This document shows, piece after piece, positions 23,913 to 33,481 of a DNA stretch of 64,000 nucleotides (its first letter is position 1; every line of letters starts with the position of its first letter). This DNA comes from Armatimonadota bacterium. GTDB taxonomy: Bacteria > Armatimonadota > HRBIN16. Made by a program: the position numbers and the translations under genes. Location of the stretch: assembly GCA_026003195.1 (NCBI GenBank), contig BPGU01000004.1, positions 70,317 to 134,316 of the forward strand, in the 5' to 3' direction. The notes beneath the pieces were generated by a model. That model saw only the letters and a program-made list of their open reading frames with translations. It was not told the DNA's origin and ran no database searches.

Positions 23913-25898
23913 ATGGCAACAACTATCTGGCAAAGAATACGTGCAGAAGCAGAAACGCAGGAACAAGCGGTTGCCGTACAGCGTGGCGTGACTCTCCGTG
24001 CTGTAGTGGTCGGTGTCATTCTTGCACCGCTGATTGCGTGGTTCAACATCTCTATCGAAGCCATTCGCTATGCGGGGCAGCCGACCACTATCTCGTTGTT
24101 TCCTCACATCCTGTTCGTGCTTTTGTGCTTGATTGCGGTGAACGCGGTAGTCGGGCGCATCGTACCCCGGTGGCGTTTCTCCCCCGCAGAGTTGATGACC
24201 ATCTACTTCTTTACTCTGATGACGGCGGTGATGGCGTCGCATGACCTGATTGAGGTCATCACGCCTATTCTGACCTATCCCTTCAAGTACGCCAACCCTG
24301 CCAACCGCTGGGACAGCGATGTCATACCCTATCTGCCCAAATGGCTGTTTATCAGTGACCCCGATGCGGTGGACAAGTACTATATCGGCAACGCCAACTT
24401 CTGGAACGGACGTGACCTGCGCATCTGGACACCACCCCTGCTCATCTGGACGGGCTTCTTTACGGTGCTGGCGTTCGGCATGTTCTGCTTGAATGTGCTG
24501 CTACGCAAGCAGTGGACCGACCGTGAACGCCTCTCTTACCCCCTGGTGCAGCTGCCGCTGGAGCTGGTACAGCCGCGCGTGCCTGTGTTCCAGAATCGGC
24601 TGTTCTGGATTGCGTTCGCCATCGCTGCGATAAACGACATCTGGTTCGGCTTAAATCGGTTGTTTCCCACCATCCCGCAGCCCTACGTGCGCTGGCAGAC
24701 GCTGGAGCAGTATATCACCACGCCGCCGTGGAACGCGATTGGCTGGCTACCGCTGGCGTTCTTTCCCTGGATTGTGGGCATCGGGGTGCTGCTGCCTACC
24801 GACTTGCTCTTCTCGTGCTGGTTCTTCTTCTGGATGTGGAAGCTGCAACCCATCATCGCCGCCTACTACGGCTGGAACCAGATACCCGGCTTTCCCTACG
24901 TGAATGAGCAATCGTTCGGTGCGTATATGGGCATTGCACTCTTCACACTTTACACCGCAAGGAAGGCACTGGCGCAGGGGTTCTCGGCGATATGGAGAGG
25001 CTCGGATGGCAGCGACAAAGGTGAGGCATTACCCTACCGCTGGGCGGCGCTGGGCTTCTTAGCGAGCCTGGCAGCGATTTACCTTTTCTTCCTTTCTACC
25101 GGTATGAGCGGCTGGGTGATCGCGCTGTCTCTACTGATCTATCTGGCGATCTCTTTAGCGGTGACCCGTATGCGCGCGGAACTGGGCCCTCCCGCCCATG
25201 ACCTGCACGACTCGGGTCCGCAGAGGCTCATCCCCCTGCTGTTTGGCGTGGAGAACCTGAAGCGGCAGGACCTGGTGATGTTCGCACCGATTCAGGGCTT
25301 CAACCGCGCTTACCGTGCCCATCCCATGCCCACGCACATCGAAGGGTTGCGTGCAGCGGAGCGAACACGTTCCTCGATGCGGGCGATGTTCTGGGTGCTG
25401 GTGTTCGCAGTGTTCTGGGGAACGCTCACCGGCTTCTTTGTGAACGTGCACCTGCACTATCAGTGGGGCGCGGCATCGAAGGCGGACACCCCCTACGTCA
25501 GTACCATCTTCGGCAGGGAGCCGTACGACCGGATTACCTCCTTGCTGTCGGGATCGGTTTCCTCCCTACAGAAGCGTAACGTGATATGGGCGATGATGGT
25601 GGGCTTCGGCGTCACTGCGGTGCTGAGCATCTTCCGTATGAACATTGCCAACTTCCCCTTGCATCCGGTGGGCTACGCTATTTCCAGCAGCTGGAGCCTC
25701 AGCGTGTTATGGTTTTCCCTGCTGGTGGCGTGGGTGTGCAAGGTGACCATCATGAAGATAGGTGGGTTGCGCAGCTACCAGCGGGCGTTGCCGTTCTTCC
25801 TGGGGCTGGTGCTGGGCGAGTGCACGATAGGTAGCCTGTGGATGCTGGTGAGCATCTTCACCGGCACGAAAACATTTATTGTCTGGCCCTACGGATAA
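23913..25898 (+). CDS. Polytopic membrane protein, DUF6785/DUF6784-like (OPT-like transporter candidate)
   Basis: Many TM segments; 'LRKQWTDRERLSYPL', 'RMRAELG', 'FPLHPVGY', 'PFFLGLVLGE'. Confidence 0.8.
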   Translation: MATTIWQRIRAEAETQEQAVAVQRGVTLRAVVVGVILAPLIAWFNISIEAIRYAGQPTTISLFPHILFVLLCLIAVNAVVGRIVPRWRFSPAELMTIYFFTLMTAVMASHDLIEVITPILTYPFKYANPANRWDSDVIPYLPKWLFISDPDAVDKYYIGNANFWNGRDLRIWTPPLLIWTGFFTVLAFGMFCLNVLLRKQWTDRERLSYPLVQLPLELVQPRVPVFQNRLFWIAFAIAAINDIWFGLNRLFPTIPQPYVRWQTLEQYITTPPWNAIGWLPLAFFPWIVGIGVLLPTDLLFSCWFFFWMWKLQPIIAAYYGWNQIPGFPYVNEQSFGAYMGIALFTLYTARKALAQGFSAIWRGSDGSDKGEALPYRWAALGFLASLAAIYLFFLSTGMSGWVIALSLLIYLAISLAVTRMRAELGPPAHDLHDSGPQRLIPLLFGVENLKRQDLVMFAPIQGFNRAYRAHPMPTHIEGLRAAERTRSSMRAMFWVLVFAVFWGTLTGFFVNVHLHYQWGAASKADTPYVSTIFGREPYDRITSLLSGSVSSLQKRNVIWAMMVGFGVTAVLSIFRMNIANFPLHPVGYAISSSWSLSVLWFSLLVAWVCKVTIMKIGGLRSYQRALPFFLGLVLGECTIGSLWMLVSIFTGTKTFIVWPYG

Positions 25899-25912: not shown

Positions 25913-27160
25913 ATGTCTCGCGTGAGCGCAAACGACAAGATTCTCATCGGTTTCATCGGCACGGGCGGGCGAGGACAACATCTGATGCGCATTGCGCTGG
26001 GCAACCCCGATGTGCAAATCGCCGCCGTGTGCGACGTAATGGAACAGCGCCTGGCGCAGGCGGTACAAATCACGGGCGGCAAAGCCACGCCGTACAAGGA
26101 CTTCCGTCGTCTGCTGGAGCGTAAGGACCTGGACGCGGTGTTCGTTACCACGCCCGACCACTGGCATTGTATCATGACCATTGCGGCGTGTGAGGCGGGC
26201 AAAGATGTCTACGTGGAGAAGCCGCTGAGTCATAACGTTGCGGAGGGGCGTGCGGCGGTCAATGCCGCCAAACGGTTCCGACGCATTGTACAGCATGGCA
26301 CCCAACAACGGAGCGGGCAGCATTACGCCGAGGCGAGGGAACTGATACGCTCCGGTACGCTGGGCAAGATCACGCACGTGCGCATCTGGAATGTGTGGAA
26401 CGAGTCGCCTGAAGGTATCGGCAATCCTCCCGATACCGAGGCTCCTCCCGATATCGACTACGACCTGTGGCTGGGTCCCGCGCCCAAACGCCCGTTCAAC
26501 CCCAACCGGTGTTATGCACCCGGCTACTGGTTCCAGTGGGACTACTCTGGCGGGCACATGCTGGCGTGGGCGATACACCACATCGACACGGTGCACTGGG
26601 TGCTGGGCGTCACCGCGCCACGACTGGCGGTATCCGCAGGTGGAAAGTACGCGCTGAAGGATAACCGCACCACTCCTGATACACAGGATGCCCTGCTGGA
26701 CTACGGCGACTTCATCGTGCAGGCATCCATCTACCACGCCAGTGCCCGCCCTGTGGAGGGAAGCTGGTACGGCATCGCTTTCTACGGAACGAACGGCACC
26801 ATGCGTCTGCTGCGTGAGGGGTTTGAGATTTATCCCGAAGGCGACCGCACCCGCCCTGTGCAGCGCGGTGGTACCCCACAGGAAGAACCGCACGTGCGTA
26901 ACTTTCTGGACTGTGTGAAGAGCCGAAAGGAACCGGTGGCGCCCGTCGAATGGGGGCACTGGTCCACCAACGCCATGCATCTAGCAAATATTGCCCTTCG
27001 CACAAGACGGGCGGTACACTGGGATGCCAGGCAGGAAAAGGTCATCGGTGACGAGGAGGCAAACCGCTACCTGTGCCGCACCTATCGCAAGCCGTGGGGG
27101 CAATACGTGCTGCGCTATCTATCGCCAGCGCATCAGAAGTACTACAGGGAGACGACGTAG
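25913..27160 (+). CDS. Gfo/Idh/MocA oxidoreductase
   Basis: GTGGRG, 'TPDHWH', VEKP, 'GTQQRS', 'DYDLWLGPAP'; AAGGAGG RBS before ATG 25913. Confidence 0.93.
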   Translation: MSRVSANDKILIGFIGTGGRGQHLMRIALGNPDVQIAAVCDVMEQRLAQAVQITGGKATPYKDFRRLLERKDLDAVFVTTPDHWHCIMTIAACEAGKDVYVEKPLSHNVAEGRAAVNAAKRFRRIVQHGTQQRSGQHYAEARELIRSGTLGKITHVRIWNVWNESPEGIGNPPDTEAPPDIDYDLWLGPAPKRPFNPNRCYAPGYWFQWDYSGGHMLAWAIHHIDTVHWVLGVTAPRLAVSAGGKYALKDNRTTPDTQDALLDYGDFIVQASIYHASARPVEGSWYGIAFYGTNGTMRLLREGFEIYPEGDRTRPVQRGGTPQEEPHVRNFLDCVKSRKEPVAPVEWGHWSTNAMHLANIALRTRRAVHWDARQEKVIGDEEANRYLCRTYRKPWGQYVLRYLSPAHQKYYRETT

Positions 27161-27954
27161 AAACCCGCCGCCGCTCCCGCCAGCGTGCAAAGCAGGTTCA
27201 CCATGTCGTTGCTCATCCATCGCCAGCCGGCGACCTGTGTAGCGGCGAGATCGCAATGTTCCCTTCTCTCTACAACCTCGCCGCATCGTTCGCAACGATA
27301 CCTTGCCTGCAGGGTGGCGCCCAGCACGCTGTCCAGCAAATTGCCGACCATCCCACCCAGCGCAACGGCAAACATCTGCCAGAGAGGCACAGGATGTACC
27401 AGCCATGCCGTTGCCGCTACAACCACGCTACCTACACACCCCGCCAGCGTACCCCACAGAGTCACCCCACCCGAATCGCCTGCTCGCAGGGTACGACCTG
27501 TGAGGATATGACGCGGCGGGGCAGGAGAGAGTGCGCCGATTTCACTGCTCCACGTATCCGCATTGGCGGCAGCGTAAGCTCCGGCAAAAGCCAGCCACCA
27601 GTGTGCCTCACCAGTCAGAGCATACAGCGCCATGCACAGCGAGGCGACTCCACCGTTGGCAAGCACCTGTGCGGCATCGCGCCGCGCTCCCCGCGCGGTC
27701 AGGCTCTCCATACGACGCTTGCGCTCCGCACGCCAGCGGCTTAGCACACTGGAGGTGAGGAAAAAGGTAAGCAGCACGCTTGCCCCCTGCCAGCCACCAG
27801 CCGCCAGAGTCACCCATCCCACCGCCAGAGCGGCAATGGCTCCGGTGACGGATAGCCAGCGCAGACGGATAGCGGAGAGCACCACCGGCAAAACGAGCAC
27901 TGCAGAGAGAAAAGGGTCCACTACCCACACCGCTTCTCTACCGACGGATGCCAA
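27142..27954 (-). CDS. DUF92 (TMEM19-like) membrane protein
   Basis: 'RDAAQVLANGG', 'ADTWSSEIG', 'GDSGGVT', 'DSVLGATLQ', 'NDMVN'. Confidence 0.92.
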   Translation of the reverse strand: MASVGREAVWVVDPFLSAVLVLPVVLSAIRLRWLSVTGAIAALAVGWVTLAAGGWQGASVLLTFFLTSSVLSRWRAERKRRMESLTARGARRDAAQVLANGGVASLCMALYALTGEAHWWLAFAGAYAAANADTWSSEIGALSPAPPRHILTGRTLRAGDSGGVTLWGTLAGCVGSVVVAATAWLVHPVPLWQMFAVALGGMVGNLLDSVLGATLQARYRCERCGEVVERREHCDLAATQVAGWRWMSNDMVNLLCTLAGAAAGFYVVSL

Positions 27955-28771
27955 CGAGCGTCTTCAGGTATTTGGGGTCAGTGATGCGGTCTATTGCCAC
28001 GCGACCACGGCTGCTAGCAGCGTGGATAAAGTAGCCGTTGCCGATGTAGATTCCTGTGTGCGCAATGGGCTGTTTGCTGGAGCGGAAATACAGCCTGTCG
28101 CCCGGCTGCAGCATCGACAGGTCGGGGATCGGTGTGCCAACCTGTGCTTGATGTCTGCCCAGACGCGGTAACCGGATACCGTTGAGCGCGAACACCTTTT
28201 GCACGAAGCCCGAGCAGTCCAGCCCGTTGTAGGAGGTACCTCCCCAGCGGTAAGGGATGCCCAGAAAGCGCAGGGCGGTTTGCACGATGCGCTCACCCAG
28301 TACACCCGTTGCTGTGGGGTTAGCAGGTAGTACTTCGTAGTCCAGAAGACGCACATGCTGGCGCGGAATCCAGCCCACGCTGCCGTCCGCCATCAACACG
28401 CCGTACCACGCCCCGGCTTCATGGGTCACCGCGAGATACGTCAGGGTTTCACAGCGAGCATACAACCTGCTGCGTGTGCTCCGCATCGCGTAGATGGGAG
28501 CAGGGCTGACGGTCACGCCTAACCGCCCAATGGCTTGAGGGCGTTTGGATTCTGTTCTGCCGGGCGGAGGGCTACTGCGCGATGGTGTGGAGCGGGGTGG
28601 CTCCGGCGGGCGGATGGGCAGTTCGATGGAAAGGGTGGTATCGGCGCGAGCGCCCCCTGCTACCCATAGAACGAGCGTCGCCCCCAGAAAGGCAAGGTAC
28701 AACCAGCCTCTTCCCCACCCCATTTCCCTCAGGGAGGGGTTCGGAAGACAGGTATGATTCTTGAACCACAC
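27938..28771 (-). CDS. NlpC/P60 peptidoglycan endopeptidase with SH3b domain
   Basis: 'GIPYRWGG', DCSG, 'HTGIY..FIHA'; SH3 'WYGV..GWI'; start uncertain. Confidence 0.92.
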   Translation of the reverse strand: MWFKNHTCLPNPSLREMGWGRGWLYLAFLGATLVLWVAGGARADTTLSIELPIRPPEPPRSTPSRSSPPPGRTESKRPQAIGRLGVTVSPAPIYAMRSTRSRLYARCETLTYLAVTHEAGAWYGVLMADGSVGWIPRQHVRLLDYEVLPANPTATGVLGERIVQTALRFLGIPYRWGGTSYNGLDCSGFVQKVFALNGIRLPRLGRHQAQVGTPIPDLSMLQPGDRLYFRSSKQPIAHTGIYIGNGYFIHAASSRGRVAIDRITDPKYLKTLVGIRR

Positions 28772-28813: not shown

Positions 28814-29476
28814 TTACTGCACCAGTCTCAGCCAGTCGCTAAAGATAAAGTACATCCGGTCAAACAGCAGCGCCATACGTGCCATAATGGTTGTTCCAAA
28901 AATCGCGCCGAACGCCACCATCATCACCCAGCGTCCGAACTGCGCCGAGTTACGGATCGCTTTGCTCTTCTGCTCAAAGGAGAAGAAGAAGTAGCTCATG
29001 ACGGTGACGAGCACTACCATGAAGATAAGATTGTTCAAGCTCTTCGCAAAATCGAACGAACCGTTCTCCGTCACAACATACAGCGGTCGGAACGAATTCG
29101 ACAGCTGTGGCAGGTAAGTGTTGGAAAAAATCTGGAAAATCTGCCCTGCCGAGAAGCCCATCAGGAAGCCGATGGGCAGACGGCTGAGCCAGTTGTATTT
29201 TCGGCTGTGGATGAAATAGAACAGTAGTCCGAACATAAACACGAACGTCCAGTACCACTCGCCGTTCTTGAACACCGGCTGGTACAGGAACGGGTCGAGA
29301 ATATTTTTGACCAGCGCCACGATAGAAAAACCTGCAGCCAAGCCGATGAAGATGTGCTCAAAAAAGCGATAGACCACATTTTCACGGTAGATCAGGGTCA
29401 TCAGTCCGATGGTACAAAGGGCGCCGATGTACACACCCGGGCGCGCAACAAAGTCCTGCCACACCTGTTCGATCAT
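28814..29476 (-). CDS. Hypothetical membrane protein (about 6 TM), sixth gene of the DUF6754-type operon
   Basis: Hydrophobic ORF; 'YRENVVYRFFEHIFIG', 'GRWVMMVAFGAIFG'; ATGA-coupled to the upstream gene. Confidence 0.85.
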   Translation of the reverse strand: MIEQVWQDFVARPGVYIGALCTIGLMTLIYRENVVYRFFEHIFIGLAAGFSIVALVKNILDPFLYQPVFKNGEWYWTFVFMFGLLFYFIHSRKYNWLSRLPIGFLMGFSAGQIFQIFSNTYLPQLSNSFRPLYVVTENGSFDFAKSLNNLIFMVVLVTVMSYFFFSFEQKSKAIRNSAQFGRWVMMVAFGAIFGTTIMARMALLFDRMYFIFSDWLRLVQ

Positions 29477-30315
29477 CGCGACCTCCGTGCTCGCGTTGCG
29501 AAATAGCCGATGTTACCTATCACAATCAGCAACATGATCAACACGTGCGCCAGCGAGATGCTGCCCATGCCCACCGTCGCTAACCCCGGTTTTTTGAGCA
29601 ATCTCTCGTACTCTGCGGCGCCTCGCATTCCCTCCATCGTTCCCACAATCTGACCGGAAGCCAGATAGGGATATGTCTCCGGTACCATGACGGACGTAGG
29701 ACAAAACCCGAACTTCAGTTTGGGATTGGCACCCACAACCAGCCCAATCCAATCCGCATAGATACCAGAGGCAGCAATCTCCACAATCGCATCCACGTTC
29801 TGGATGTTCTTAATTCCCTGCATCATCGGCATATCCTTGGTTGGCTTGCCCTGGTAGTCTTTGTCAAAAGTGCCCGGGATGTCGCGCACCATCGATTTCA
29901 TCACCACGCCTACCTGCGGGCGAAAGCCCCAGTGAACCCAGTTCTTGCCGTACTCGTAACCGTATTCAGCGGCAAGTCGCTTAGCGATGTCCAGCGATAG
30001 CTGGCTACCCTGCACATCGAAGGAGAACACTGCCACCCGCAGTCCTCGCTGCATGGCATGGCGCAAGATGGCGACGGTCTGCGGCATATTTTCCGCGCGC
30101 GTGCCTCCACTCCATGTGGCGCTGACGATCACAAAACCGCCGGGCGGTATGGACTCGATAGCGTCGTATAACCTCTGTGTCGAGGGCATAGTGACCGTCG
30201 GCAGGCTTATAGGCAGAAACAGCGGCGCAATCACCACTATCAGCAACAGCAGATACAGTATCCGACGGTCAATCGCTTGCAGCTTGTCCCAAAAGTTCGC
30301 CGATGCCCCTGTCAT
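29473..30315 (-). CDS. Hypothetical protein with two terminal TM helices flanking an alpha/beta domain
   Basis: N- and C-terminal TMs; 'YGKNWVHWGF', 'PYLASGQIVG', 'GAAEYE'. Confidence 0.85.
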   Translation of the reverse strand: MTGASANFWDKLQAIDRRILYLLLLIVVIAPLFLPISLPTVTMPSTQRLYDAIESIPPGGFVIVSATWSGGTRAENMPQTVAILRHAMQRGLRVAVFSFDVQGSQLSLDIAKRLAAEYGYEYGKNWVHWGFRPQVGVVMKSMVRDIPGTFDKDYQGKPTKDMPMMQGIKNIQNVDAIVEIAASGIYADWIGLVVGANPKLKFGFCPTSVMVPETYPYLASGQIVGTMEGMRGAAEYERLLKKPGLATVGMGSISLAHVLIMLLIVIGNIGYFATRARRSR

Positions 30316-30318
30316 CGT

Positions 30319-31128
30319 CTAAATCTCCTTCTCGAAGTAAGCCCCTCGTTCCAGGCTAAGCCAGATACGTAGTGAAATGGCAAGTCCGCCTACACCCAAT
30401 CCGAAAGCAATGGCACGCAGCGCCGCCGCATTCAGCACCGTTAACAGCCACTCCTTCATCACTTCCAGACGCAGCGAAGCCAGCATACTGTCACGGGGGA
30501 TCCAGGCGGTCAGAGCCAATCCCACCGGCACCTGCGCAAGCATTACCAGAAACGCCGTTGCCATCAGGATGGTGGCTTCCACCGAGCGGATACGAAAGGC
30601 GCGGTATGCCGCTGAGACAATGTAGAAAGCGATAAGCGAGAACATGGTAGCGTCCATGTTAATCAACATGCCCTCAAACAGCACACTGAACACCTGCTTG
30701 GCGGTTGGGTTGTTGCCGTATCGCTCCATCAAACCAAACACCACCATCGCCGTCATGGCTGCCAGCAAGGCGAGGCTGTTGTACCACCCGCTACGCAAGC
30801 GCGTGATATTACGACCATGCACTCGCAAAAGGCTCAGGATGCCCAGGGTCAACGTCATCCCTGCCAGCAAGCTGCCCAGCTTGCTGGCGGGCACAAGATA
30901 GTCGGTCAGGAAGTTCTTACCCTCTTTGTCTATCGGCAGGAAGAACTCTGTAGCGTAAAAGAGCCCTGCGAGAAAAGTGACTGTAGCGATAAGCGGCTTG
31001 CGTGCGCGCGAGGGCAGGTTCATCAGCAAGATGATGATCAGGATGCTCAACACAACCGCCCCTGCCACATAATACGGCAGCACCTCTGGCGGCTTGGGAC
31101 CGAAAAAGCGAACTATCGGCTCTAGCAC
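30319..31128 (-). CDS. Hypothetical polytopic membrane protein
   Basis: About 7 TM; 'ATMFSLIAFYIVSAAYRAFRIRSVEA', 'LRIWLSLER'. Confidence 0.85.
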   Translation of the reverse strand: MLEPIVRFFGPKPPEVLPYYVAGAVVLSILIIILLMNLPSRARKPLIATVTFLAGLFYATEFFLPIDKEGKNFLTDYLVPASKLGSLLAGMTLTLGILSLLRVHGRNITRLRSGWYNSLALLAAMTAMVVFGLMERYGNNPTAKQVFSVLFEGMLINMDATMFSLIAFYIVSAAYRAFRIRSVEATILMATAFLVMLAQVPVGLALTAWIPRDSMLASLRLEVMKEWLLTVLNAAALRAIAFGLGVGGLAISLRIWLSLERGAYFEKEI

Positions 31129-31145
31129 CGTCCGTTACCCCCCTG

Positions 31146-31949
31146 TTAACGAATGCGAAACAGGTCCACGAACCATTGGCCCGCATCCGCCAGCATCGGC
31201 ACTTTCAGTGCGGCAAGCGTTGCAGCCATCGAACCCACCACGCACAGCGCGGTAATCAGCAGCTTGCCAAAATCCTGACCGACCAGGCTACCCAGCATCG
31301 TCGGATTGCGCGAGATATATGCGCTGGCGGCGTAGTACTCATCGCCGATGATGGTGTAGTCACACGCGGCGATGAAGAAGGGAATCTGGGTCGTCTGCGT
31401 CGTACCGGCAACCTGTATCGCACCGGTCATATTGCCTGTCTCGGCGAAGATAAGCGACTCCGCGAAGAACTCCCCGAACATAAAGGAGCTGGCTACTTTC
31501 TCGCGCTGTATCAGTCCTGCCACGCCGGATGCGAACGCGAACTGGCGGTCGGAAAGGAAGCGAATAGAATCGGGGTCAAACCGTTCGGGATGTCCCTCTG
31601 CCTGATAGGCGTCACGGATGACCTCTTCCGCCACGGTATACACCGTGGGGTCTGCTACAGGCATCAGGATGCGGTTGCCGAACCTGGCGGTGGAACGGGC
31701 GATATAGCTGAAGATACTCAATGCCTGCAGGGCGATGATGCCAAACCCGCCGATACCAGGTACCATGAGCACAGGACGTCCCATTTCGGTAGCGCGTCCT
31801 ATCGCTTCATCGATGGCGTTCAAACCGGGAATACGTCGGATGAACATCTCCTTGCCCCGCTGAGCCGATAGAATGCGCCAGATAATTATCGTCGCCGTCA
31901 ACACTTCCATAATCAGCACGGGCCAGATTTTCTCAAAGGCGTGTTGCAT
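31146..31949 (-). CDS. DUF6754-type membrane protein
   Basis: 'IRRIPGLNAIDEAIGRATEMGRP', 'FAESLIFAETG', 'QIPFFIAACDYTIIGDEYYAASAY'; family recognised from memory. Confidence 0.8.
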   Translation of the reverse strand: MQHAFEKIWPVLIMEVLTATIIIWRILSAQRGKEMFIRRIPGLNAIDEAIGRATEMGRPVLMVPGIGGFGIIALQALSIFSYIARSTARFGNRILMPVADPTVYTVAEEVIRDAYQAEGHPERFDPDSIRFLSDRQFAFASGVAGLIQREKVASSFMFGEFFAESLIFAETGNMTGAIQVAGTTQTTQIPFFIAACDYTIIGDEYYAASAYISRNPTMLGSLVGQDFGKLLITALCVVGSMAATLAALKVPMLADAGQWFVDLFRIR

Positions 31950-32262
31950 GATCAGATGGCTCCTGCTCCTTTTCGTGTTCTAACTGTTCGATGCGCTCGA
32001 TCAGCCTCTCTACGTTCTCCCGCTTCTCCAGCAATCGGCTGTAGCGATGCACGTTGTCTATTCCCACAAAAGGCGCGAGAAACGGCGTCAGCACAATCAG
32101 CGACTGGCTGGCGACGAAAGAAAGGGGCTTGTTCAGCTCCAGAAACAGCACTGCCGGAGCTGCCATCCCGCGACGCACAATCCCCTGTGCGATACGCTCC
32201 AGAATAGCGTCGCGCTCTTCGTCGCTCAGTTCGTCTTCTTGCCAGCGGTCGATTCTCTCCAA
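31933..32262 (-). CDS. Small hypothetical protein
   Basis: TTG start behind GGAGG; 'IVRRGMAAPAVLFLELNKPLSF'; overlaps both neighbours. Confidence 0.75.
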   Translation of the reverse strand: MERIDRWQEDELSDEERDAILERIAQGIVRRGMAAPAVLFLELNKPLSFVASQSLIVLTPFLAPFVGIDNVHRYSRLLEKRENVERLIERIEQLEHEKEQEPSDHATRL

Positions 32263-32693
32263 AAGGCAATCGCCTCCAGCACCTGGTCACGGTTGCCCGC
32301 GAAGCGCAGGTACACCCCGCGAAAGGGTTCCAGACGCGAACGGGGCGGCAAAGGGCTGAGCTTCACCCCGTCAGGAGTAACGGTCACATATTTCACGCGC
32401 TCCCACGCGATGTCAAACCCTGCCCCCAGATAGCGCACCCTCGCCCCTTGTTCGTCCACCGCATAGTGTACTGGCAGCCAGTAATCGCGTGTGGCCAGCC
32501 ACAGCAACAGCAGTGCCAGCAACCCCATTCCCGCACTGCGAAAAGCCACCCCTACCAGAGCAGACGCCAGCAGCATGATGGCTCCCGCCAACCATGCCTT
32601 CTGCGGCTGTTCACGTAACAGATGCACTCTCCATCGCAGGGTGTACTGGTTCGCCTGTTCCTCGTCGCTCATGCGCGGAGCACCGCTGTGCAT
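32226..32693 (-). CDS. Hypothetical 2-TM protein with PH-like cytoplasmic domain
   Basis: Two TMs then 'YAVDEQG...IAWERV', 'SRLEPFRGVYL'; start 32693 or 32672. Confidence 0.75.
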   Translation of the reverse strand: MHSGAPRMSDEEQANQYTLRWRVHLLREQPQKAWLAGAIMLLASALVGVAFRSAGMGLLALLLLWLATRDYWLPVHYAVDEQGARVRYLGAGFDIAWERVKYVTVTPDGVKLSPLPPRSRLEPFRGVYLRFAGNRDQVLEAIAFWRESTAGKKTN

Positions 32694-32704
32694 AGCCCTG
32701 CGTC

Positions 32705-32733
32705 ATTATAAGGAGAAACACCCCCCATGTCAA
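32705..32733 (-). promoter_or_regulatory. Perfect sigma70 promoter for the DUF6754-type operon
   Basis: Minus strand TTGACA (32733-32728), 17-nt spacer, TATAAT (32710-32705). Confidence 0.88.
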
Positions 32734-32824: not shown

Positions 32825-33481
32825 CTACGCACGTCGTCGGCGCAGAGCCAGCAGTCCCACCACTCCGCTACCCAGCACCAGCAGGCTGGCGGGTTCGGGT
32901 ACGGGAACCGTCTCCAGATAGAAGTTGGCTACTGGATTGCCGCCAAACCAGTAAGGTCCGCCGTTGTTGATGGTGAACAGGTCGTGGCTGGTACCCACTG
33001 TCGGCGGGTTGTAGATAAGCAGCCCAGCATCCGCCGCACTGAACGAGAAGCCAATCCACAGGTCCGCCGGTGCGGTGAGAGGAGCCGGTAACGTGATGGT
33101 GTAAATCCACCCGCCGGAGCCGTTCAGCGTGCCCAGCGGATACGAAGCGATGAGCGAAGCCGGCAAGTTAAAGTCGCCGTTGTTTTGATAGATGTAGAGG
33201 GTGACATCAGGTGCGCTGGTCGGCGCGTAATAGGCGAACGACACCTGCCCAATCGGCAGGCTGGTGGTGCGATGCACATCGTCCGCCACGATAGCCCCTG
33301 CTCCACCGGGATAATAAAAGCCGGTGGAGTTGGTGGTGTTGCTGTAGTCGGGAGCCATCTGGGGGGTTAAGCTGCCACGGAACAGGTCGGCTGGCACAGG
33401 CGTTGCCGTAACCCGAATCTGCGCGTTAGCTACTGCGACGGCACCCAGCAATAAAGCGGTGACCAGCAAAGTGCGAAACAT
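32825..33481 (-). CDS. PEP-CTERM sorting domain protein
   Basis: Signal peptide; C-terminal VPEPASLLVLGSGVVGLLALRRRRA. Confidence 0.93.
   Translation of the reverse strand: MFRTLLVTALLLGAVAVANAQIRVTATPVPADLFRGSLTPQMAPDYSNTTNSTGFYYPGGAGAIVADDVHRTTSLPIGQVSFAYYAPTSAPDVTLYIYQNNGDFNLPASLIASYPLGTLNGSGGWIYTITLPAPLTAPADLWIGFSFSAADAGLLIYNPPTVGTSHDLFTINNGGPYWFGGNPVANFYLETVPVPEPASLLVLGSGVVGLLALRRRRA

Follow-up and report, generated by a model that had tools for sequence, protein, structure and literature searches.

The operon, its promoter and its transcription

The window analysed here is a 64,000-nucleotide stretch of DNA from an Armatimonadota bacterium (contig BPGU01000004.1 of assembly GCA_026003195.1), and our subject is a run of six minus-strand genes within it, named A to F, one of which encodes a DUF6754 protein held between transmembrane (TM) segments. 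A–F are six members of a conserved eight-gene set, the other two of which, M and N, are encoded far away in this genome. Positions refer to the window, protein lengths are in amino acids (aa), and the features of the locus are as follows (ORF, open reading frame).

32807-32779 (-): intrinsic-terminator-like hairpin with a 13-pair stem and a T tail, closing the upstream PEP-CTERM gene (PF07589)
32733-32705 (-): exact sigma70 consensus promoter, TTGACA-17-TATAAT
32693-32226 (-): gene A, ORF of 155 aa; 2-TM hairpin and a predicted cytoplasmic PH-like domain; single-copy accessory subunit
32262-31933 (-): gene B, 109 aa; small helical protein with one hydrophobic stretch; single-copy
31949-31146 (-): gene C, 267 aa; DUF6754; TM, Rossmann-type alpha/beta domain predicted cytoplasmic, TM
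31128-30319 (-): gene D, 269 aa; 7 TM, comprising a 6-TM core and a lineage-specific extra N-terminal TM
30315-29473 (-): gene E, 280 aa; TM, Rossmann-type alpha/beta domain predicted extracytoplasmic, TM
29476-28814 (-): gene F, 220 aa; about 6 TM, N-terminus predicted outside
27142-28771 (-): downstream NlpC/P60 (PF00877) and DUF92 (PF01940) genes, outside the conserved system

A preliminary description of this DNA had reported six co-directional, tightly packed genes without recognisable signatures, and this account holds. All six ORFs are present; A and B overlap by 37 nucleotides (nt), B and C by 17 and E and F by 4, and the remaining junctions are gaps of 17 nt (C/D, the largest) and 3 nt (D/E). 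C is a full member of Pfam DUF6754 (PF20539; E 9.6e-96, 320 bits, cut-off 27) with two clear TM segments around its alpha/beta domain, as had been described. DUF6754 is a catalogued domain without a function, and none of the other five genes matches a family over its cut-off: A, D, E and F gave no Pfam match, B gave two matches below cut-off only, and none of A–F matched NCBIfam (searched to E 0.1). Walker A, CxxCH and CxxC motifs were found in none of A–F, in agreement with the reported lack of Walker A, heme or Fe-S signatures; D has no Cys and F has one. No known-transporter signature emerged either, since the Pfam and NCBIfam searches, and PDB sequence searches with C, D, E, F, M and N (best hit no better than E 0.02), returned no characterised match. 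PADLOC models of anti-phage defence matched none of the eight proteins at E 0.01. The closest relatives of C are 90–91% identical and are titled Armatimonadota or unnamed bacteria. Because close relatives do not retain the ATG of A at 32693, whereas an ATG at 32672 is retained in L003, L004 and L006, A probably starts at 32672 and comprises 148 aa.

The terminator said to insulate the operon from the upstream gene and the exact promoter said to precede it are both in place at the positions listed above. Exact TTGACA-17-TATAAT sites number 44 in the 4.58 Mb genome. Among the 66 loci in which the A ORF was recovered (14 of 80 loci were left out), 25 carry a 12/12 promoter match 5' of A, while 65 control windows inside the operon never exceeded 8/12. 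The hexamers are retained among relatives and the spacer and flanks diverge; no conserved operator was found in the promoter spacer. Loci without the exact promoter are largely those titled Fimbriimonadaceae or Fimbriimonadales, and it is also absent from all ten metagenome loci that have A together with upstream DNA. On sequence grounds the promoter is real and selected, its exact consensus being kept across distant families, and the 25 exact matches, the diverging spacers and the absence from other groups together argue for constitutive transcription in part of the phylum.

Since no terminator was found 3' of F, the transcript may continue into the NlpC/P60 and DUF92 genes. Only two RNA runs, both of one sample, hold 5–6% of the sequence words. 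Nine short RNA contigs (88–100% alike) fall on A, B, D, E, the upstream gene and the NlpC/P60 gene, and one RNA contig reaches into the promoter spacer; the contigs are too thin to rank the genes by level, to bear out the strong expression suggested earlier or to place the transcript start. Rfam gave no match at the operon, and 14 eight-gene or metagenome loci were likewise free of cis-regulatory matches.

Conservation, partners and copy number

In the 80 best loci around C, with genes located by tblastn, we recovered C 80 times, D 79, B 77, F 75, A 73 and E 72, and the order A-B-C-D-E-F was invariable in these Armatimonadota loci. Missing genes fall mostly at contig ends; in five loci D and F flank an E-sized gap, with E below the detection threshold. 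Neighbouring genes are shared in few of the 80 loci (PEP-CTERM in 6, NlpC/P60 in 7 and DUF92 in 5), and the NlpC/P60 and DUF92 carriers are all close kin; 20 other loci have a different gene after F, which from its sequence we take to be recO-like. As flanking genes accompany only 5–7 of the 80 loci, the conserved unit here is A–F. The fixed order and the empty hidden Markov model (HMM) and PDB searches bear out the earlier view of a multi-gene membrane module without a characterised match, whose homologues are co-localised rather than scattered. Its suspected occurrence in other bacterial phyla is likewise supported by named Nitrospira, Fermentibacterales and Poribacteria proteins among the relatives. 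The Atlas clusters of D and A are dominated by Armatimonadota, Planctomycetota or Nitrospirota, and the relatives include the cultured genera Chthonomonas, Fimbriimonas, Capsulimonas and Nitrospira. B has 2,896 relatives among 50%-identity representatives. No relatives of C were found in plasmids.

M (591 aa) is the sole PF13941 protein of this genome and lies on contig C1; N (375 aa), a barrel-sandwich protein, lies on the same contig about 490 kb away, and A–F, M and N thus occupy three separate places. Their joint presence was surveyed in 201 Armatimonadota genomes, each at least 90% complete, with PF13941 scored over its cut-off and unlisted misses deduced from totals. DUF6754 is present in 177 genomes and PF13941 in 178: both are present in 176 and both missing from 22, C occurs alone in one and M alone in two. 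N and B are each present in 176 genomes and both are missing from the same 22, which span five families; further misses concern N in G042, G060 and G146, and B in G002, G079 and G149.

In eight genomes chosen for M lying near C, the genes often share one operon. L116, L119, L120, L121 and L122 carry A-B-M-N-C-D-E-F (N in L120 and L121 was placed from coordinates), L117 has the order A-B-C-D-E-F-M-N, and L118 reads A-B-M-N-C up to the contig end. A metagenome survey of 80 loci retrieved with N alone, many of them on short contigs, recovered M in 48, B in 32, C in 30, D in 28, E in 26, F in 24 and A in 12. M, N, C, D, E and F occur together in 19 of these loci and all eight genes in 6, and at least two copies of C are found in 7. 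Seven of them read B-M-N-C-D-E, with E 74–85% identical to named Nitrospira proteins, and B often sits directly ahead of M in other lineages. None of the 80 loci around close C relatives (up to 12.8 kb) contains M or N. We regard it as very probable that A–F and M/N constitute one functional system. The six-gene module of the preliminary description stands insofar as A–F are conserved, but the unit extends to eight with M and N.

Copy numbers divide the eight genes differently from their positions. This genome has two copies each of C, D, E and F and one each of A, B, M and N. The second C-D-E-F set is found at two places on contig C4 (284072-282439 and 466898-465256), about 180 kb apart; it is contiguous in G041 and G054, and the same D/E junction is interrupted by insertions in G123 and G096, suggestive of an insertion hotspot. 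Seven of 13 second-module loci (L244–L246, L248, L249, L253 and L254) hold a bare C-D-E-F without adjacent A or B, and the remainder are partial or are tandem C duplications inside the main operon. Of the 176 genomes with B, 174 carry a single copy. Since A, B, M and N are single-copy whereas C-D-E-F is duplicated as a module, A and B group, by this pattern, with the shared set M and N despite their co-transcription with C–F here. C alone is tandemly duplicated in some operons and E alone in others (L255 and L256, from G033 and G059; L131, L146 and L187).

A thiamine pyrophosphate (TPP) riboswitch at L082:9799-9904 (G000:C4:468798-468903, -) was considered as a cargo clue, lying about 2 kb upstream of the second E-F pair. 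It stands directly before an ORF that is prepilin-like (a call made on an N-terminal methylation-type motif read from the sequence), not before a thiamine gene. Because it precedes this unrelated ORF and is absent from the 13 second-module loci of relatives, it was rejected as a product of rearrangement.

Architecture of the subunits and of M and N

TM segments and orientations were called from family-level hydropathy and from K+R counts in the flanks. Hydropathy gives 2 TM for A, 2 clear TM for C, 7 for D, 2 for E and 5 for F. The architectures proposed earlier for A (two TM and a PH-like domain) and D (about seven TM) are upheld; of the six or so TM proposed for F, five are recovered by hydropathy, and the sixth is inferred from charge alternation only. 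The TM segments of A span residues 33–51 and 55–73 with both ends predicted inside, and among its Atlas neighbours at 0.96–0.97 are PH-domain clusters, one of them with bPH_6 on 16%. For C, K+R counts rise from 0.1 before TM1 to 3.9 after it, which places its domain inside; for E they are 2.9/1.1 at TM1 and 1.2/3.1 at TM2, which places its domain outside. These charge flanks thus predict the two soluble domains on opposite membrane faces, as had been suggested. Some C relatives carry an N-terminal Fn3 domain, in agreement with an outer N-terminus of C; the C copy here lacks it. D has a conserved basic cytoplasmic loop, and F is predicted to be inserted the opposite way round to the 6-TM core of D. 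Some D proteins are extended, on the side predicted to face outwards, by ankyrin repeats or Poly_export domains. These long forms comprise a 956-aa ankyrin form and lipoprotein-like Poly_export forms, and D forms of 510–520 aa occur in second modules (P0463–P0467; L248, L249, L252 and L253).

Structure models of C and E (pLDDT, the predicted local distance difference test score, 90 and 96) have the same helix/strand order, with one insertion in E. An hhalign comparison of C with E gave E 9e-4 at 23% probability, a second comparison gave 7%, and the score lay above 12 of 12 column shuffles; judged by the models, E is likely an ancient inverted paralog of C. Fold searches for both returned generic Rossmann matches only. 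The matches of C include 6zdz (Z 10.6, root-mean-square deviation [rmsd] 3.1, 138 residues) and transhydrogenase domain III 4j16_C (Z 9.9, rmsd 3.5, 140 residues), each tied with other Rossmann-type folds, and E matched MT0777 (1kjn; Z 10.2, rmsd 3.2, 138 residues). Median identity is highest for C (60%) and lowest for E (38%) and A (36%). The cytoplasmic domain of C spans residues 30–229 or so, and its invariant residues include R38, G42, R52, E55, E150 and E170. Scanning individual members of C and E against Pfam revealed no recurring family other than DUF6754.

In an alignment of 29 sequences, M is invariant at D11/G13/S14/T15/T17/K18, D284/G286-D291 and G418/G420/G421, which we take to be the phosphate-1, phosphate-2 and adenosine motifs of the actin/Hsp70/sugar-kinase (ASKHA) fold. 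M is thus a predicted actin-fold ATPase. A review counts the glutamate-mutase-associated family among the non-polymer enzymes of the actin superfamily (PMC5597319). The preliminary description had named an ATP-independent transporter as one possibility; that part is unsupported, because an actin-fold protein whose nucleotide-binding motifs are intact belongs to the eight-gene set. On PF13941, M reaches 442 bits; it is a homologue of the GlmL and Or-4 proteins, with the same actin-fold motifs, but differs from them in its linkage to membrane genes. All of its NCBIfam matches fall below cut-off (NF040745, 236 against 475; NF040744, 219 against 600; TIGR01319, 184 against 204). It is some 120 residues longer than these proteins, and its extra C-terminal region of about 110 residues is absent from L087 (G166:C75:35-1450), a short classical GlmL-type protein that passes NF040745 and TIGR01319. 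Glutamate mutase E (PF06368) was found in none of the 201 genomes, in a search whose control matched once, below cut-off. The aminomutase family PF09043 had no match in G000 or G166, nor in any control genome; G166, a fragmented assembly, thus holds neither glutamate mutase E nor PF09043 as far as these searches reach. In this genome a transposase-like gene and a prophage-like island, with ORFs that we named from sequence as terminase-like and portal-like, lie directly upstream of M (L086, G000:C1:651820-660000), whereas L130, of the same genus, has mutS-like and dioxygenase-like genes there.

N gives weak barrel-sandwich matches, namely RnfC-type at E 2e-4, under the cut-off, and RraA-type at E 0.24. 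His and Lys residues were tabulated at positions 84–99 and 236–244 of 72 sequences. At the hairpin position 54 of the 72 have K and 14 have R, which is also the residue in this genome; position 241 (H241) is His in 37 and Gln in 25, so that there is no invariant carrier His, and no His occurs among the invariant columns of the alignment. The C-terminal segment of N reads as KOW-like, and one relative is labelled NusG.

A candidate importer and its alternatives

We tentatively propose, at a little short of an even chance, that A–F supply the membrane subunits of an ATP-driven importer whose energy would come from the predicted actin-fold ATPase M together with its partner N. C, D, E and F would form one membrane unit of about 17 helices, as suggested by their fixed order and their duplication as a block. 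The variable outer alpha/beta domain of E would capture cargo, aided in some lineages by the outer domains of C (Fn3) or D, and the inner domain of C, the twin of that of E and the most conserved, would serve as the site at which M docks. When M binds and hydrolyses ATP in its actin-like cleft, the C domain would move and a path through D and F would open. A, B, M and N would be one energising set shared by each C-D-E-F module, much as in energy-coupling factor (ECF) transporters. That the system represents a new class of primary active transporter, with an actin-fold ATPase, a pseudo-symmetric four-protein translocon and A/B/M/N shared among cargo-specific C-D-E-F modules, is a possibility that we hold with somewhat greater reserve.

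In group II ECF transporters, one energising module is common to several membrane modules (PMC7755397). The proposed logic is analogous, with one A/B/M/N set serving one or more C-D-E-F sets, and the copy-number pattern would fit it. Unlike ECF and ATP-binding cassette (ABC) transporters, however, A–F have no Walker A motif or ECF Pfam match, and no ABC family match was found in A–F, M or N; the candidate motor is actin-fold rather than ABC, and the specific module here consists of four proteins with soluble domains on both faces. The membrane-tethered alpha/beta domains of C and E are reminiscent of transhydrogenase domain III, but the match of C is tied with SDR (short-chain dehydrogenase/reductase), sirtuin, RCK and MT0777 folds, and the operon has no domain I partner; pntB is encoded elsewhere in this genome. 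RnfA and RnfE are inserted in opposite orientations, as D and F are predicted to be, and N has the weak RnfC-type match; the resemblance to Rnf and Na+-NQR ends there, as A–F lack Fe-S and heme motifs and the membrane subunits match no Rnf or Nqr family. TRAP, Mrp, Rnf and Nqr family HMMs in Pfam and NCBIfam gave no match for A–F at E 0.1. Group translocation of the phosphotransferase system (PTS) type differs in that N has no invariant phospho-acceptor His.

To our knowledge, no transporter has an actin/Hsp70-fold ATPase as its motor. A full-text literature search, which covered few subscription papers and no supplements, found no paper naming DUF6754 or PF13941, and broader searches found nothing on the eight-gene system. 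The system is of considerable size, N alone having at least 7,996 relatives and DUF6754 being carried by most genomes of the phylum surveyed. M has been hidden by its filing under a Pfam family named MutL and by its resemblance to a B12-mutase accessory protein. This locus adds that A and B belong to the shared single-copy set and that the consensus promoter is retained across distant families. The cultured genera among the relatives make the system testable. If the proposal is true, the new class of primary transporter would occur in nearly all Armatimonadota, in Nitrospira and in numerous uncultured lineages.

Several observations weigh against an importer of this kind. HMM, PDB sequence and fold searches link no subunit to a known transporter. 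The 93 neighbouring proteins are heterogeneous and the operon has no riboswitch, so neither neighbours nor Rfam offer a clue to cargo. Near-universal, mostly single-copy retention and the exact promoter also fit a housekeeping role in the envelope. Sixteen of the 22 joint absences belong to one family and are not independent events, which leaves few independent losses behind the co-occurrence of M and C. As for pseudo-symmetry, C–E sequence homology is weak (probability 7–23%) and one of 30 block shuffles scored higher; homology between D and F was considered and rejected, profile comparison detecting none. No subunit–subunit fusion occurs among five long D forms, which is weak evidence.

The observations that suggest a housekeeping role would suit an envelope machine that uses ATP to export, anchor or remodel surface material, with M as an actin-fold platform at the inner face, an explanation that we consider unlikely. 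PilM and GspL are such platform proteins in pilus and secretion systems. Retention in 177 of 201 genomes, mostly in single copy, and the promoter kept in 25 of 66 loci speak for it, as do the outer Fn3, ankyrin and Poly_export (Wza-type) additions, the cell-wall peptidase gene downstream in close kin, and genes after N in 5–6 metagenome loci that are presumably TolQ/R-like. Yet no pilin, secretin, glycosyltransferase or outer-membrane gene recurs among the 93 neighbours, and tandem multiplication of C-D-E-F against one M and N better fits substrate-specific modules. A membrane-coupled enzyme or energy transducer, in which M phosphorylates or hydrolyses a crossing substrate or a nucleotide-like ligand of C/E is coupled to ion flow, seems to us decidedly unlikely. 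It draws on a marginal Hydantoinase_A match of M, just over cut-off (E 2.4e-5), on the resemblance of C to transhydrogenase domain III, on the barrel-sandwich domains and RraA-type match of N, and on an alignment of the E profile with a 7-sequence PntB domain III profile over 131 columns, whose score of 23.4 exceeds 30 of 30 block shuffles (maximum 19.6) and 10 other alpha/beta families (maximum 18.7). The hhalign probability of this E–PntB alignment is only 6%, making it a lead, and motif matches of C to PntB and to electron-transfer flavoprotein (ETF) lie within shuffled scores. Moreover, N lacks an invariant phospho-acceptor His and a required lipoyl or biotinyl Lys, A–F lack Fe-S and heme motifs, and NAD(P) is not expected outside, where the E domain is predicted to lie.

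Transmembrane signalling, with E sensing an outer ligand, C switching the nucleotide state of M and a relay through N and the PH-like domain of A, is improbable: the look-alike domains on both faces, the PH-like domain and the KOW-like end of N would suit it, but no regulator, kinase or cyclase recurs with the operon and the roughly 13 helices of D and F exceed what a receptor needs. An ATP-independent (ion-coupled) transporter complete in A–F, to which M and N are incidental neighbours, would explain why these two are missing around close C relatives, and opposite-orientation subunit pairs are typical of secondary carriers. It is nevertheless very improbable, as genomes retain or lose M and N together with C even where they are unlinked, and the genes are co-operonic in other lineages. 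Finally, M could be a GlmL-like reactivating factor of a B12 mutase, linked to the membrane genes by chance. Its PF13941 score and its homology to the GlmL and Or-4 models point that way. Such a helper role was rejected on account of the GlmL, Or-4 and TIGR01319 scores below cut-off and the lack of glutamate mutase, and the extra C-terminal region of M also stands against it; the finding of glutamate mutase E in 0 of 201 genomes largely refutes this explanation, which we hold to be barely credible.

Gene neighbourhoods yielded a few further observations. The glycine cleavage P-protein gene gcvP lies upstream in 7 of the 80 metagenome loci (L152, L154, L161, L164, L168, L186 and L202), and lipA or lipoate-ligase (lplA)-like genes lie near the operon in 4. 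A lipoate/glycine link is kept as a lead only, since the hairpin Lys of N is not required. In L142, L153, L173, L183 and L199 a protein of about 260 aa with a signal-like N-terminus and no Pfam match is encoded between M and N; most of these loci, and L160 and L174 as well, have the TolQ/R-like genes after N. Elsewhere in the window, the PEP-CTERM protein upstream of the operon is encoded at 32825-33481 (-) behind a near-consensus promoter (10/12, 33552-33524) and was assembled in both RNA runs, and a 661-aa polytopic DUF6785 and DUF6784 membrane protein is encoded at 23913-25898 (+) in a sugar-catabolism-like gene run.

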